Part shown: in pieces, positions 10,437 through 17,138 of the stretch | Numbering within the stretch: the first letter of the stretch is position 1 | Layout of the letters: every line of letters starts with the position of its first letter | DNA from: a virus | Virus genome (UHGV): UHGV-0229226 | DNA: 26,755 bases | Strand: one strand, 5' to 3' | Notes under the pieces: model-generated | What the model saw: the letters and a program-made list of their open reading frames with translations, nothing else | What the model was told of the DNA's origin: nothing | Databases searched by the model: none | Position numbers and translations under genes: made by a program

Positions 10437-12194
10437 TTAAAGCGAGCGGATGCCCACGCTGACCAGATGTTCAGACAGATCCGGCTCCGGTTCACCACCA
10501 TTGACCAGCATCCGGCTCATCGCTGTAAACATCGCAACAGGGCCGTCGATTTTGGCTTCCAGCGTGGATTTATTCGGGAAGATATTGTCGTTTTTGTCCG
10601 GTTTTACCGTAACGTTAGACATCATCCAGTTCATGACCGGATGATTGCTGTGATGGAAACGCCCGGCATAGACCAGTGATTCCGTTTCCTTCATGGCCTC
10701 TGACAGATTGCGAACCGTCTGCGGAACCTCCACCAGCGGTATCCCTTCTTCAGCCAGTGCCAGGCTGAACTGCATCGCGCTCCACGGGTCAAATCCCAGT
10801 TCCCTGAGGTTTTCACCACCAATCCATTCCAGTAAGTCACTTTTTATCTGAGCATGATCGATAACATCACCATCCGTCAGAATCAGCTTATCCATCTCCG
10901 CCCACTTCCGGTAAAGTTCTGCCTGCTGCCGCGAGCATCGTTCCAGCCGTCCTTCCGGAAGCCAGAATTTAAAATCGGCATGAACATGCCCGTTATCCGT
11001 TCGCCAGAGTTTTGCCGCCGCACAGATATCAATCTTATGAGCAAGGTCAACGCCGACCCACATGGGATACGTTTTCAGCTCATGTCGTGGGGCAATGTAT
11101 TCGCACTTCTCCCACTTAATCATATCCATCCAGGCAGATTCGGCAGTGACCCACACATTCATGTGTTTGGTAAAAAAATTCACCCGCGCAGAGACCTGCT
11201 CCTTCGCTTTTTTCGCCAGACGACGCAGATCATCCCAGCGTTTACAGATGCCCAGGCCAGGATTCGCTTTCTGCCAGACCGTTTCATCAAACGGATCATC
11301 TCCCTCATCGAGCGTGTAAATGATCGCAAAGTAGGAGTCGTCTTTTACCGCGCCCTCCACGTCGCTGTTATAGCCTCGCAATACCTTAATGGCGTAATCG
11401 CGCTGCTCGTAGCAAATCCCTTCCTTGTTAAAGCCAGCCGTGGTGATGCCAAATAACAGAGACTGCAGACGGGCACCGGTTGCCGTTTCCAGAACGTCCC
11501 ACACGTCACGGGTTTTATGAGCATGCAGCTCATCAATAATGGCGCAGTGGATGTTCAGACCGTCCAGGTTGTTTGCATCCGAGGAAAGCGGTTCAAATTT
11601 TGATGCGCTCTGCTCCTGGTAAATCGCCAGCTTGTTGAAATCAAACAACCGCCCGAGTGTCGACCGGGCTTTTCTGACCATATTTTTGGCGTCTTCAAAC
11701 ACAATTCTGGCCTGGTCACGCGTGGTTGCGGCTGAATACACCTCAGCACCGCCTTCACCATCTGCCCCCGTCATATACAGACCGATACCCGATGACAGGG
11801 TTGATTTTGCGTTTTTACGGGCAACTTCGTTGTATGCTGTCCGGAACCGGCGCACCATCACCGGGCGTCCACTGCCATCGCTGCGCATGACAACTTCCCC
11901 GGTTTCTTCATTCACCAGCGGAATGACAAAACCAAAAATATTAATGAGGATAAACACATGCCAGTCCATCAACTCAATGGGCTGACCTGCCAGCGCCCCT
12001 TTCACATGGGGTACAAATTTGTAGAAATTAAGGATGTGCTGTGCACGAGGTTCACTGAAATAAATCCCCCGCTCTTCGCCGTACTTCAGATCATCAAGAA
12101 AACGCTGGCAGGCCAGACGGACAAATTCGCCAGCAACAATTTCTCCTGCAACAACACGTTCGGCGTAGCGGATCCCGTCAGCCACTTTTGCCAT
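10437..12194 (-). CDS. Terminase large subunit
   Basis: 585-aa ORF; size and position fit a large terminase. Start is coupled to the small-subunit stop. Confidence 0.9.
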
Positions 12195-12676
12195 CAGTCT
12201 CTCGCTTTTAAAAGCTCTGCCAGCGGATCAACATCATCCGGTCCGGCGGTATTTACTTTCGCCCGGCTTGCCGGTGACATACCAAACTCTGCAAGCATCG
12301 CCCGAATCCGCTTCCAGGCATCAGCCTTCATCGCAGCAGCCGGGTGTGCCTTGATCAGCACATCGCCATTCTGCGTTTCCGTGCGGTAGGTATAACCCTC
12401 AACATCGAGTATTTCGCAGTGATGCCGGTATTCGGTGTAGGCTTCCACCAGTAACTCGAGCGCACGTGCATCGAGCTGAGAAATGATCCCTTCCGCATTC
12501 AGCTCTTCCGCCATTCGCCTGAACCAGTACTTCCCCTGCGCCCCTAAATGTTGCGGAATTTTAGGGAGACCTTTTTCATCCTTTTTAGCGGTTTTTTTGG
12601 AGTCTTTAACTGGCCGCTTAGAGGGGTTACCTCGTATCAAATGCAGGCGTGGCGGGGTTTTCGGGGGTCCAGACAT
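12194..12676 (-). CDS. Terminase small subunit (P27-type)
   Basis: 160-aa ORF with a basic N-terminus, directly upstream of and overlapping the large subunit. Confidence 0.8.
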   Translation of the reverse strand: MSGPPKTPPRLHLIRGNPSKRPVKDSKKTAKKDEKGLPKIPQHLGAQGKYWFRRMAEELNAEGIISQLDARALELLVEAYTEYRHHCEILDVEGYTYRTETQNGDVLIKAHPAAAMKADAWKRIRAMLAEFGMSPASRAKVNTAGPDDVDPLAELLKARD

Positions 12677-12823: not shown

Positions 12824-13174
12824 TCAATTGATGCGTTCGCACGCTGTTTTTGCTTTATGACAGGGCCAGCACAGACTCTGCAGGTTACTGTCTGCATCCG
12901 TGCCACCATGAGCTTTCGGAATGATGTGGTCCACAGTTCTGGCTTCAACGGCTCTCCCATTGCGCAGGCAGTTCTGACACAGATGATTATCACGCTTCAT
13001 TATGCGCGCACGTATGGCATCCCATTTCGAGCCATAGCCACGCTGGTGGCGACTCAGTCCGCGCTGATGCTGTACCCATCCTTCGCCACGATGTTTATCG
13101 CAGTAACCAGAACTGTCTGTGGTTGTACCTGCGCATCCACGCTTACGGCAGGCTCGTGGGATTCGTGATGGCAT
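12824..13174 (-). CDS. HNH endonuclease (terminase-associated)
   Basis: 116-aa ORF with Cys-rich HNH motifs (CQNCLRNGR...VDHIIPKAHGGTDADSNLQSLCWPCH) just upstream of the terminase genes. Confidence 0.85.
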   Translation of the reverse strand: MPSRIPRACRKRGCAGTTTDSSGYCDKHRGEGWVQHQRGLSRHQRGYGSKWDAIRARIMKRDNHLCQNCLRNGRAVEARTVDHIIPKAHGGTDADSNLQSLCWPCHKAKTACERIN

Positions 13175-13181
13175 AAATACC

Positions 13182-13382
13182 TCATACCCTGTTCGGTTTA
13201 ATGACAGGCTGATTCTCGATATGTTCTGCTGTCAGTCTGAAAGTCACAGTGACTGTTGGTGGCTCGCCTCCGCGTGTCTCTGTCCTGGCGGAAAGCTGCC
13301 CTTCCAGTAACTCACCATTAACTGCAATCCCATACCCTGCGAAATGTTTACCACGATACAGTTTAGCGACCTGAAACTTCAT
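13182..13382 (-). CDS. Hypothetical protein
   Basis: 66-aa ORF directly upstream of the HNH gene on the same strand. No family recognised. Confidence 0.4.
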   Translation of the reverse strand: MKFQVAKLYRGKHFAGYGIAVNGELLEGQLSARTETRGGEPPTVTVTFRLTAEHIENQPVIKPNRV

Positions 13383-13626
13383 AACTCTTCCTTTTAGACA
13401 TGTTAGACGTGAACCTGTCGCACGGCAGAGTCGCCGAAAGTTTACGGTTTACCCAGGCTCACAGCTGAAAGCCTTTCTTAGATGTGCACATGCGATATGC
13501 TTTGAATGAATTATTAAAAACTTTGCTCTTTTTCAAAATTTCGTATCCTGGCTCGTTAATGTTAAAGAATTAAACGTAAGAAAGTAGTATGTTGAATCGC
13601 TTATATCAAAATACATAGGACTCAAA

Positions 13627-14112
13627 ATGCCAGAACTCGTTGATCCAACAGACTCATTAATTAGTTTTCAATACGCCTTTTCTAATGGTCTGATTAAGCC
13701 TTCACCATGCATAGTTCACCCAAATATGAAGGTGCTTTTGGATGATGCAGAGGGTACACCACGGTTTACTTATGCATTCTTTGAAGGAGAAAATGTTAAA
13801 GGTGTTGCTATATATGTCCCTGCAGAGTTTGTTGAAGGTAAACCATGCTTTGGCGTTGGCTATGCAGTAGCTGATGAATATAAAGCGCAAGGCATCGGTA
13901 CTCAACTTCTCATCGCCAGCATTGAAGAAATGCAATACGGATTTAGAAATTCCTTCAATGAATTCTATGTAGAGGCTATTGTCGGGGTTGGTAATCAAGC
14001 CTCCAACAAATTAGCTGCAAAAGTTTTATCTGATACTCCTGAGCCAGGGACAGATTCTTACTCAGGAAAACCTATCAATCAGTACATGAAACTTTTCAAA
14101 ACCACAAAATAA
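13627..14112 (+). CDS. GNAT-like acetyltransferase-fold protein (moron)
   Basis: 161-aa ORF on the strand opposite the late operon. ATG is preceded by AGGA; the segment AQGIGTQLL resembles the GNAT acetyl-CoA binding motif. AT-rich flanks and its own downstream terminator. Confidence 0.5.
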   Translation: MPELVDPTDSLISFQYAFSNGLIKPSPCIVHPNMKVLLDDAEGTPRFTYAFFEGENVKGVAIYVPAEFVEGKPCFGVGYAVADEYKAQGIGTQLLIASIEEMQYGFRNSFNEFYVEAIVGVGNQASNKLAAKVLSDTPEPGTDSYSGKPINQYMKLFKTTK

Positions 14113-14122
14113 CTACCATTCT

Positions 14123-14144
14123 GGCGCAGATTTTTGCGCCTTTT
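14123..14144 (+). terminator. Rho-independent terminator of the GNAT-like gene
   Basis: GGCGC stem / GCGCC stem with an AGATTTTT loop, followed by TTTT, about 10 nt after the stop. Confidence 0.45.
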
Positions 14145-14290
14145 CAGGTTTGCAGTTCACCTGCCACGCTTTGTTATGCGCCTGAATGTCCCGCTTCGTC
14201 TGTTGCATTATCATAAGTAATAGCGTAGGTTGACACCCTGGCTCTCTTTCGCCACCGGCGAATCTTTAGCGGATTATCCTTGGCCGGTTT

Positions 14291-14758
14291 TTATCTGAGA
14301 CATTGCTCACGAATGTATAGCTGTGCCCCTTCCAGTTGCTTCTGCATCGTCATCAACCGTTCTCTGAGGGTGAAATAATCCCGTTCAGCGGTGTCTGCCA
14401 GTCGGGGGCTGGTTGCATTATCCACGCTGGTGGGTCCGGTGGCTTCACGCACGGCTGCGGAGCAACTGGCATTGACCCGCAGGCGCTTACGACCAGCGGC
14501 AACATCAGCGCGCAGGGTTTCATTTTCAGCTTTCGCATTGGCTAATTCTCTCGAGTACTTTGCATCGAGCGCAGCAACATCACGCTGACGCATCTGTATG
14601 TCAGTAATTGCCGCGTTCGCCAGCGTCAGTTCTCTGGCATTTTTGTCGCGCTGGGCTTTGTAGGTAATGGCGTTATCACGGTAATGATTAACAGCCCATG
14701 ACAGGCAGACGATGATGCAGATAACCAGAGCGGAGATAATCGCGGTTACTCTGTTCAT
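14291..14758 (-). CDS. Rz: Rz i-spanin
   Basis: N-terminal transmembrane segment ([18 protein letters not shown]) followed by a charged coiled-coil periplasmic domain. Start taken as MNRV at 14758, overlapping the endolysin stop. Confidence 0.8.
14353..14538 (-). CDS. Rz1: Rz1 o-spanin (outer-membrane lipoprotein) embedded in Rz in another frame
   Basis: 61-aa ORF with a lipobox-type signal (LPLVVSAC) and a proline-rich mature part, lying wholly inside Rz. Confidence 0.75.
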
Positions 14759-15252
14759 TGCTGACCCCACAAACAGATTTCACGCTCAATCTCACGACGA
14801 GTCATGAGACCTTTCCATTGCTTACCGCCAGCATATGTCCAGCGACGTAGCTGATCACATGCGCCTTTGATATCGCCCTGGTTTATTTTGCGAAGAAGCG
14901 TCGATGTTCTGAAATTGCCAGCACCCACGTTGTAAACGAATGAGTAAAGAGCGCCGCGCATTGTTTCCGGTATATCGACTTTGATGTACGGGTTAATTTG
15001 TCTGGCGACCGTGGCAAGGTCTTTATTCAGGAGGGCTTTGCATTCTGCTTTGGTATACGTTTTACCGAGCATGATGTCTTTTCCTGTATGCCCGTGACAT
15101 ACAGTCCATACACCAACAATATCTTTGTATGGTATGTAGCTGACACCTTCCAGACCATCGTTACCACTTGGGCCAGTGATTAACACTGATGCTATAGCAA
15201 TTGCTCCGCCACCAATAGCAGCAGCAACGGCTTTTCGTAATGATGGAGGCAT
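14755..15252 (-). CDS. R: SAR endolysin (phage 21 R-type lysozyme)
   Basis: 165 aa with a Gly/Ala-rich signal-anchor-release segment at the N-terminus ([20 protein letters not shown]) and a T4-lysozyme-like catalytic region (LEGVSY...KD...T). Very close to phage 21 R as I recall it. Confidence 0.9.
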
Positions 15253-15467
15253 TATTCACCTCTCGCAGCCTTGCGCTTATCTTCTTTAATCTTGAAATAA
15301 AGGTTTGTCAGGTACGTCAGCAGGCCAAATACCAGGCTACCCAGCACACCTATTGCCGCCCACTGTGAGGGCGTGACTTTATCGAGCAACTGTAAAAACC
15401 AGTACCCGGCACTACCTGCTGAGGTACCATAGGCGACACCCGTTGTTAACTTATCCATGGATTTCAT
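15252..15467 (-). CDS. S: Class II holin (pinholin, S21-type) with dual-start motif
   Basis: 71 aa, [26 protein letters not shown]..., two transmembrane domains, Met1 and Met4 dual start, charged C-terminus. Matches phage 21 S. Confidence 0.85.
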
Positions 15468-15593
15468 AACCCCACCTCGCAGACAAAGCGGGTGTAAATT
15501 AAGGGGATACTACGTATCGCAATAAAGGCAGAAACGTAACAGATTCGGAGTCAGTGAATAACTCAGGTATTGGGTTATCAGCTAATATCGAGA

Positions 15594-15629
15594 CTCAAAA
15601 AATGGAAAAACCCGCTCGACGGCGGGTTT
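15594..15629 (-). terminator. Rho-independent terminator about 140 nt upstream of the holin
   Basis: CCCGC-CGTCGA-GCGGG hairpin followed on the minus strand by TTTTTCCATTTTTT. A candidate tR'-type late terminator, or a terminator shielding the late operon from upstream transcription. Confidence 0.45.
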
Positions 15630-16055
15630 AAGCTGTGTGACGAAGTAACCACTCTTAACAGCATAACCAATTTTTTACGTACGTAAACTACTAAATGATA
15701 TTTGTGAGAATGCCACCGAGTGTTCAAAACACCACCACAAATGCATAAGAAAACTTCAACAAATAACCAGTTAATAATTTCCGATGTTATTTTTAGTTTG
15801 TTTAAATTAAGCTAAAGAATTATAGAGCACTTATAAATAAGTGCCATTAATATAAATTAGCTAATAGATTTATTTTTGTTCAGACAAGAGCCATGAATAG
15901 GATTAGATAGAAAAGGTTCAGATAAAAATAGAGATCTACTTCACAAATTAAATGAGAAACTAAAACTTACATCTTGAAATAATCACATTGATTAGATGAA
16001 TATTTATCGCGCAGTGACATCATTTTTTAATAATAGTTCAAAAAAAGGGCGTACA

Positions 16056-17138
16056 ATGAAAAAATTAACAGTGGCAATTTCTGCTGTAGCTGCATCAGTA
16101 CTGATGGCGATGTCTGCTCAGGCAGCTGAAATTTATAATAAAGACAGTAACAAGCTGGATCTATACGGGAAAGTTAATGCCAAGCACTACTTCTCCTCTA
16201 ATGATGCAGATGATGGTGATACTACTTATGCCCGTCTTGGCTTCAAAGGTGAAACCCAAATCAACGATCAACTGACTGGTTTCGGTCAGTGGGAATATGA
16301 ATTCAAAGGCAACCGTGCTGAATCTCAAGGTTCTTCCAAAGACAAAACCCGTCTTGCATTTGCAGGCCTGAAATTTGGTGATTACGGCTCAATCGATTAC
16401 GGCCGTAACTACGGTGTAGCATACGACATCGGTGCGTGGACTGACGTTCTGCCAGAATTCGGTGGTGATACCTGGACCCAAACAGATGTGTTCATGACTG
16501 GTCGCACTACTGGTGTTGCAACTTATCGTAACAACGACTTCTTTGGTCTGGTCGATGGCCTGAACTTTGCTGCTCAGTATCAGGGTAAAAATGACCGCAC
16601 TGACGTAACTGAAGCCAATGGTGATGGTTTCGGTTTCTCCACTACTTATGAGTATGAAGGATTCGGCGTGGGTGCAACCTATGCTAAATCAGATCGCACT
16701 GACGGTCAGGTCGCCTATGGTAAGAGCAAATTCAATGCCTCCGGCAAAAATGCGGAAGTATGGGCTGCAGGCCTGAAATATGATGCGAACAATATCTATC
16801 TGGCTACCACATATTCTGAAACTCAGAATATGACCGTTTTTGGTAATAACCATATTGCAAACAAAGCACAAAACTTTGAAGCAGTAGCACAATATCAGTT
16901 TGACTTCGGTCTGCGTCCATCTGTTGCTTACCTTCAGTCAAAAGGTAAAGACCTTGGTGTTCATGGTGACCGAGACTTAGTCAAGTATGTCGATGTCGGT
17001 GCTACTTACTACTTTAATAAAAACATGTCCACTTTTGTTGATTACAAAATCAACTTAATTGACGATAGTAAGTTTACCAAAACAGCTGGTATTGATACCG
17101 ACGACATCGTCGCTGTAGGTCTGGTTTATCAGTTCTAA
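16056..17138 (+). CDS. nmpC: Outer-membrane general porin (OmpC/OmpF family; phage-borne NmpC/Lc-like)
   Basis: Signal peptide [23 protein letters not shown] then [23 protein letters not shown]..., ending in the aromatic ...VAVGLVYQF typical of porins. Start taken at the internal ATG 16056, which has a AAGGG Shine-Dalgarno. Confidence 0.9.

Follow-up and report, generated by a model that had tools for sequence, protein, structure and literature searches.

The bor gene of phage lambda occupies a slot just downstream of the lysis genes and is expressed from the prophage. Cargo genes (morons) that occupy the bor/iss slot of lambdoid prophages are well known for altering the traits of the lysogen, and the products of bor and iss are outer-membrane lipoproteins. 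AcrVA5, a GNAT acetyltransferase of a mobile element, is an anti-CRISPR protein that acetylates Cas12a, and the GNAT toxins of type II toxin–antitoxin systems (TacT/AtaT/KacT/ItaT) acetylate aminoacyl-tRNA. Here we analyzed a stretch of 26,755 nt from the virus genome UHGV-0229226 (hereafter 'the window'), in which a cargo cassette at 13383–14150 on the + strand, delimited by comparison with homologous prophages, fills the slot that corresponds to that of bor and provides an enzyme instead of a surface protein. The coding sequence of this GNAT acetyltransferase (13627–14112, +), identified by Pfam, a structure model and tblastn, comprises 161 amino acids (aa) plus stop and starts with ATG. Our best explanation of the locus as a whole, which we hold with somewhat better than even confidence, is that of a moron cassette in the bor/iss slot whose solitary GNAT gene is maintained by selection and serves protective acetylation.

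First, we consider the distribution of the cassette and the content of the slot. Of 5426 complete E. coli genomes, 63 (1.2%) carry the 908 bp from 13383 to 14290 at ≥99% identity, always on the chromosome. The carrier strains include ST131 and avian pathogenic E. coli (APEC), and one of them is E. coli 20Ec-P-124 (NZ_AP017610.1, 2139977–2140462); the last 140 bp alone were matched in 208 further E. coli genomes. By tblastn the window protein is 100% identical to the product of the gene that RefSeq lists as WP_001114684.1, 'GNAT family N-acetyltransferase', and the RefSeq copy lies in the same place of an HK97-like prophage. As the gene is already annotated there as GNAT, we regard it as an ordinary but uncharacterised cargo gene. 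Searching with the whole stretch from the HNH endonuclease gene to the Rz gene, we observed that in both the window and the sister prophage L001 the GNAT gene fills the slot between these two genes, that iss in the same orientation takes its place in L007 and yfbU together with a gene of 88 aa in L006, while in L008, an otherwise homologous prophage, the slot consists of a 42-bp spacer. This spacer (L008:852–893) is made up of two remnants of the region of a 66-aa open reading frame (ORF; window 13175–13361), including TACCCTGCGAAATGTTTACCACGATA, and because it holds these remnants the 'empty' slot is a deletion derivative that has lost an earlier cargo. The DNA rightward from 14151 is common to prophages without the GNAT gene, so that the GNAT-specific segment comprises 13383–14150.

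Since homologous prophages have iss, yfbU or nothing in the slot, the GNAT gene is a moron in the position of lambda bor. The preliminary description of this DNA had already taken the gene for a moron of AT-rich composition at 13383–14160, lying against the late operon between Rz and the HNH and terminase genes. All of this agrees with our data: the ORF is located on the strand opposite to its neighbours Rz on one side and the 66-aa ORF, HNH and terminase genes on the other, being on the + strand among minus-strand late genes and therefore antisense to the late operon; the boundaries differ by a few nucleotides; the G+C content is 0.37–0.41 over 13400–14150 compared to 0.49–0.55 (about 0.52) in both flanks; and the cassette recurs with different lysis and packaging modules. 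The likeness to the bor/iss locus thus extends to slot and orientation just after Rz, against the late operon, with iss itself found there in L007, and to a solitary cassette of deviant composition that is present or absent between homologous prophages. The products differ, as the bor/iss lipoprotein is located in the outer membrane and the GNAT protein would be cytoplasmic, without any sequence relationship between them. Neither a DNA nor a protein match to the GNAT gene was found in 50,697 sequenced phage records, and on the phage side it is known solely from prophages and IMG/VR contigs. Taken together, the cassette is best explained as a self-contained cargo that is exchanged horizontally and sits where lambda has bor and a sister prophage has iss.

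The same arrangement was found in other enterobacteria. Prophages of Enterobacter, Leclercia, Cronobacter, Klebsiella and Dryocola, as well as 30 IMG/VR viral contigs, carry orthologues with 54–92% identity. The GNAT gene stands antisense to the late genes, directly after the lysis cassette, in about 15 distinct enterobacterial contexts, and this placement holds despite differing lysis genes (GH19 or GH24 endolysins, varied holins) and with at least three types of large terminase following the gene. In Yersinia (46% identity) the gene is antisense as well; it has the large terminase gene on one side and either the small terminase gene or a DUF2280 gene on the other. Not only the gene but also about 250 bp before its ATG are conserved, and eleven loci show them at a constant spacing. 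On the left, the conservation stops sharply at the start codon of the adjoining minus-strand gene, which encodes 66, 96, 265, 210 or 496 aa in the different loci, all of them unrelated. From the locus alignment we defined a conserved non-coding block without assigned strand (13395–13500, which is 127–232 bp before the ATG in window coordinates), with the core CCCAGGCTCACAGCTGAAAG 175–177 bp before the ATG. The block is also present in L009, L031, L033, L034, L036, L040, L042, L045, L050 and L051 at an equal distance from the GNAT start. It is richer in G+C and shares 66–89% identity with the other loci, as a mosaic with respect to the coding sequence, and the loci sharing it have GNAT coding sequences at a synonymous divergence (dS) of about 1. 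In most loci it holds a 9-bp inverted repeat, GTGAGCCTG...CAGGCTCAC, for which the window has the version GTGAACCTG.

We searched the block for known functions. It had no match in Rfam, gave nothing significant when folded on either strand, showed no net covariation in RNAalifold on either strand and contains no conserved small ORF; a structured RNA is therefore unsupported. A cos site was rejected because three different terminase types accompany the block. It may act as an operator or as an element of a promoter, or belong to a long leader. On the basis of these alignments the mobile unit consists of the upstream region, the gene and the hairpin described below. At the left edge of the block we observed a tandem duplication specific to the window, TTAGACATG TTAGACGTG at 13395–13412, which is single-copy in the orthologous loci and creates a 22-aa ORF (13400–13468) that is likewise specific to the window.

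We then considered the signals around the gene. A good ribosome-binding site, the Shine–Dalgarno sequence AGGA (13617–13620, +) read directly from the DNA, is located 6 nt before the ATG, and the upstream alignment shows that most orthologues keep (A/G)GGA at the same spacing. Downstream, folding and locus comparison indicated a terminator-like hairpin, GGCGCAG-AUUU-UUGCGCC followed by UUUUCAGGUUU (14123–14151, +). Its 7-bp G+C-rich stem-loop at 14123–14140 begins 11 bases past the stop codon, the 61-nt stretch around it folds with –16.7 kcal/mol (z = –2.5 compared to shuffled sequences), and it forms the right boundary of the GNAT-specific DNA. A simple terminator scan did not call the hairpin, because its run comprises four U and not five. 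The gene is probably transcribed on its own from the + strand and would end at its own hairpin. As it is transcribed against the late operon, we infer that it is expressed mainly from the repressed prophage; for bor, expression from the prophage is established.

Next, we focused on the encoded protein. Pfam model PF00583 (Acetyltransf_1) matches with 27.4 bits (E = 4.4e-6), above the curated cut-off of 20.7. The signature QGIGTQLL, from which the preliminary description had recognized a GNAT protein, occupies residues 88–95 and lies within a canonical motif A, K86-A-Q-G89-I-G91. A word-indexed protein search yielded 39 relatives at E ≤ 1e-3, and we aligned the window protein with 36 full-length relatives that are 38–92% identical to it. 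Across these 37 sequences 18 columns are invariant, among them G89, and motif A, the pyrophosphate-binding loop that links beta4 to alpha3 (GNAT consensus Q/R-x-x-G-x-G/A), follows the family pattern R/K-x-x-G-x-G/A; 31 of the 37 members match Acetyltransf_1 at E < 0.01, and the same number also touch Acetyltransf_3 (RimJ/RimL type). A profile search extended the family to 593 representatives of clusters at 50% identity at E ≤ 1e-3 (452 at E ≤ 1e-10), nearly all of them stand-alone proteins of about 160 aa. The ratio of nonsynonymous to synonymous divergence (dN/dS), determined pairwise among eight orthologues, is 0.05–0.2, with dS reaching and exceeding 1; the reading frame is under strong purifying selection.

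Structure prediction by AlphaFold2 with the family alignment gave a confident model (predicted local distance difference test, pLDDT, 92; predicted template modelling score, pTM, 0.87) that contains the GNAT fold, a mixed beta-sheet with the beta4-alpha3-beta5-alpha4 core, and so the fold proposed from the signature also appears in the model. Comparing the model to the PDB with Foldseek, we obtained GNAT acetyltransferases only, with a probability of 1.00, yet the template modelling (TM) score was only about 0.5; among viral protein structures there was no close match (TM ≤ 0.58). The best profile match to a PDB sequence is the archaeal N-alpha-acetyltransferase SSO0209/Ard1 (E = 6e-4), which spans beta4-alpha3-beta5. 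In this match the invariant Glu116 aligns with the Glu of the Ard1 YLE motif, a catalytic residue of that enzyme. The N-terminal third is atypical: the usual beta1-alpha1-alpha2 is replaced by one helix and a following loop that carries the invariant Cys28. Compared to Ard1 (SSO0209), RimL, RimJ and RimI, about 125 of the 161 residues superpose at about 18% identity, the N-terminal third differs, and no full-length homology to a characterised member of these families was found. A search of the literature gave nothing on WP_001114684 or its family. The cassette is therefore predicted to encode a cytoplasmic, stand-alone GNAT-fold protein with an intact acetyl-CoA-binding motif, which is a member of the GNAT superfamily outside all characterised subfamilies that we tested; the closest of these (Ard1, RimL and RimJ) are distant.

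In order to see how far the family extends, we searched plasmids and genomes of other bacteria. With tblastn we found homologues at 25–50% identity on 34 plasmids of Pseudomonas, Stutzerimonas, Agrobacterium, Aeromonas, Vibrio and others, half of which are conjugative; the plasmid homologues that we count in favour of our explanation are 37–50% identical. The species-representative genomes added Acidobacteriota, Alphaproteobacteria, Janthinobacterium, Thermomonas and one Saccharimonadales genome. Judged by these hits the family is a distinct, uncharacterised GNAT clade carried almost only on mobile elements; in Enterobacteriaceae these are temperate phages, and in Pseudomonas, Agrobacterium, Aeromonas and Acidobacteriota they are plasmids or integrative elements. 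We clustered all ORFs within 5 kb of the homologue in 35 non-redundant loci, and no recurring neighbour family was found across them outside the late genes of enterobacterial phages. A scan of 146 neighbours from 20 non-enterobacterial loci brought up scattered mobile-element and defence genes only (integrase four times, reverse transcriptase three times, and PycTIR, single-stranded DNA-binding protein (SSB), ArdC and ParA-like proteins twice each). The GNAT gene is thus a solitary cargo of mobile elements without a conserved partner.

Several of these loci deserve a closer description. On four Pseudomonas/Stutzerimonas plasmids (L002, L003, L071 and L073) the homologue is located inside a co-directional run of small unannotated ORFs, which starts upstream of it with a short tyrosine recombinase (180–225 aa) and may be a conserved plasmid operon. 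A gene for the Pycsar effector PycTIR (E = 3e-139) was observed 1.4–3.7 kb from the homologue in two unrelated elements, L002 (P. aeruginosa p382) and L057, a metagenome-assembled genome of Hyphomicrobiaceae. Two genes adjoin the homologue in Agrobacterium pAt2 (L005), one with a TIR domain and one for another GNAT protein, of 320 aa. An ArdC-N anti-restriction gene is present within 3 kb in two acidobacterial loci, L065 and L055, the former with an SSB gene in the same range. In P. syringae HS191 the homologue lies between par genes and type IV secretion genes; the position of the origin of transfer (oriT) was not located there. On one metagenomic contig we also found a protein of 1098 aa, P0097 (L074:1444–4740), that joins an Mrr nuclease and an nSTAND1 NTPase to a C-terminal GNAT domain of the window family and whose gene follows a SIR2_2 gene. 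The GNAT part is missing from about 950 relatives of its NTPase, and we set this fusion aside as a singleton, which may be either a true fusion or an assembly or stop-codon artefact.

From such surroundings one can derive a role in counter-defence, in which the protein would be made soon after DNA entry and would acetylate and thereby disable a host immunity protein or signal, in the manner of AcrVA5. The family is common to temperate phages and conjugative elements, which both face host defences, and ArdC-N with or without SSB in the acidobacterial loci, the string of small ORFs on the four plasmids, and the PycTIR, TIR, Abi and reverse-transcriptase genes near several homologues would fit this role. 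However, the phage copies are located outside the early region, antisense within the late region, in the slot of the lysogen-expressed genes bor and iss, and the plasmid contexts are not clearly leading regions, as the copy of HS191 illustrates. A paper on anti-defence genes of leading regions does not contain the word 'acetyltransferase'. Furthermore, no PADLOC defence model matched at E ≤ 0.1, and PHROGs returned a generic 'acetyltransferase' only (E = 0.002), which is uninformative. Weighing both sides, we consider counter-defence possible but rather unlikely. By the same PADLOC result a known anti-phage defence protein was rejected as an identification.

We return to protective acetylation and how it could work in the prophage. 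Transcribed independently and against the late operon, the gene would be active mainly in the lysogen, and in the lytic cycle antiterminated transcription of the late genes would run into its own transcription. Motif A would bind acetyl-CoA, Glu116 on strand beta5, the putative general base, would act as the base, and the acetyl group would be passed to a primary amine. The residues predicted to line the acceptor site (C28, R46, Y49, C74, F75, Y79, S146 and G147) are invariant from E. coli to Acidobacteria, which suggests a target that is widely conserved or widely encountered. That the acetylation is protective or neutralising and benefits the element or the host, rather than being that of a growth-arresting toxin, is in our estimate about evenly poised. 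The target would be either an amine of a protein or peptide or a harmful small molecule, and we lean slightly to the former because the nearest relatives are N-alpha-acetyltransferases.

A number of observations weigh against this explanation. The promoter scan called no consensus sigma-70 promoter on the + strand. A position weight matrix (PWM) scan of eleven aligned orthologous upstream regions gave weak promoter candidates only; the best of them in the AT-rich proximal upstream region, the presumed promoter region according to composition, alignment and PWM (13501–13616, +), is TTAAAG (13562–13567) and TAGTAT (13585–13590) with a spacing of 17 bp, and it is not above chance. Of the independent expression and the own terminator given in the preliminary description, the terminator-like hairpin with its U-tract fits the latter, and no convincing promoter was found for the former. 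The gene context outside enterobacteria is heterogeneous. The position at which a Tyr, the general acid of many GNATs, is expected in alpha4 (pattern N-x-x-A/S...L-Y) is, judged from the sequence pattern, a near-invariant Ala130, in difference to Ard1, RimL, RimJ and RimI, and therefore the chemistry may differ or the enzyme may be weak. Moreover, the present evidence fits protective and host-modulating acetylation alike. In the latter case the enzyme would acetylate, at lysines or at the N terminus, a conserved host protein of the ribosome, the RNA polymerase or metabolism and thereby retune it to the benefit of the prophage. A precedent is the acetyltransferase Rac of phage phiKMV, which is reported to act on the alpha subunit of RNA polymerase (PMC7552054). 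We rate such a modulator as improbable, slightly more so than counter-defence. AcrVA5 and Rac resemble our proposal in that both are small acetyltransferases of mobile elements acting on a protein of the other party. They differ in being genes of the lytic or early programme, whereas the window gene is an antisense insert in the late operon, and both are absent from the best structural matches, with homology to AcrVA5 not having been compared directly.

Protection could also take the form of small-molecule resistance or detoxification in favour of the lysogen, in which case the substrate could be an antibiotic of the aminoacyl-nucleotide kind, for example processed microcin C, or else an aminoglycoside, a polyamine or a toxic analogue of an amino acid. 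RimL, MccE and the phosphinothricin, bleomycin and aminoglycoside acetyltransferases are among the structural neighbours, and the frequent contact of family members with the RimJ/RimL-type model Acetyltransf_3 points in the same direction, as do the plasmids of plant- and soil-associated bacteria that carry the gene and the use of the slot by host-benefit genes. Against this, the only match to the curated NCBIfam models has E = 0.09 (11.6 bits compared to a cut-off of 460), by which an assignment to a named resistance enzyme or a curated GNAT family, including the equivalogs of Ard1, RimL, RimJ and RimI, was rejected. The gene is also rare in E. coli, as the share of carrier genomes given above shows, and unlinked to resistance cassettes; compared to the aminoacyl-nucleotide detoxification by RimL and the C-terminal domain of MccE, the window protein is similar at the superfamily level only and has no microcin genes nearby. 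Detoxification therefore seems to us a minor possibility, on a par with counter-defence. The chances that we assign to counter-defence, detoxification and host modulation overlap with that of protective acetylation and with one another, and they are not meant to add up to certainty.

A toxin had been listed among the possible functions in the preliminary description, next to antibiotic acetyltransferases and anti-defence factors, although it noted that no partner antitoxin was visible. With the toxins TacT, AtaT, KacT and ItaT the window protein shares that it is a small single-domain GNAT protein on a mobile element. However, its family is solitary everywhere, without an antitoxin gene and without detectable similarity to these toxins: in the window a small gene next to it on its own strand is missing, no + strand ORF of ≥30 aa that could code for an antitoxin (RHH/DUF1778) is present in 13383–13626, and no neighbour, and thus no partner, is conserved over the 35 loci. 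In the same interval, which the preliminary description had named as the place to look for a small upstream ORF, we found four ORFs of 22–30 aa, none of which is conserved in the orthologous loci. The PDB sequence matches include no GNAT toxin, and neither sequence nor structure places the protein closer to TacT, AtaT, KacT or ItaT than to other GNATs. The alpha4 Tyr is apparently absent in the sequence pattern, and it is implausible that a solitary toxin would be kept under strong purifying selection in many hosts. Because a conserved partner and any resemblance to TacT/AtaT are missing, we regard a type II toxin that acetylates aminoacyl-tRNA as extremely improbable, and this part of the earlier proposal is disfavoured.

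GNAT genes are common in prophages and plasmids. Of interest here are the confinement of the clade to mobile elements across phyla, its constant antisense position behind the lysis genes, and the upstream region conserved with it. A broader conjecture, which we find quite doubtful, would combine them: a hitherto unrecognised, phylum-spanning family of solitary acetyltransferases (about 450–600 clusters at 50% identity, with invariant Cys28 and Cys74 and without the canonical alpha4 Tyr) would be shared by temperate phages and conjugative elements as a tool to counter defences or neutralise competitors, would inactivate by acetylation an immunity protein or signalling molecule that is itself widely conserved, and would be under the control of the conserved 250 bp upstream. 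If the activity is protective, a new acetylation, for resistance or counter-defence, joins the shared tools of mobile elements; if the target is a host protein, a protein retuned by a prophage would be identified; and if the gene is silent or free of phenotype, it is one more anonymous GNAT. The small size of the family and the accessible E. coli copy in 63 sequenced strains make direct testing feasible.

Finally, we describe the genes surrounding the cassette. The window carries the late genes of a lambdoid, HK97-like prophage on its minus strand. Those for lysis encode a holin (15252–15467, –), a lysozyme (14755–15252, –) and Rz (14291–14770, –; Pfam Phage_lysis, E = 4e-50), and inside Rz a 61-aa ORF (14353–14538, –) with a lipoprotein-type signal …LVVSAC… is a candidate for the o-spanin Rz1. 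On the packaging side the 66-aa late-operon ORF (13182–13382, –) matches phrog_10235 of unknown function (E = 8e-28); it sits between the GNAT gene and HNH and shows no linkage to the GNAT gene in other prophages. It is followed by the HNH endonuclease (12824–13174, –; PF01844, E = 4e-16), the P27-type small terminase TerS (12194–12676, –) and the large terminase TerL (10437–12194, –). The ORFs beyond the terminases resemble, in size and order, the portal, protease, capsid and tail genes that are annotated at the equivalent places of the sister prophage L001. Adjoining the holin we observed a second antisense cargo gene, which codes for a porin of the OmpC/NmpC/Lc type with a signal peptide (15996–17138, +). 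It is accompanied by AT-rich DNA at 15500–16100 (G+C content 0.28) and is probably another moron of the same prophage.

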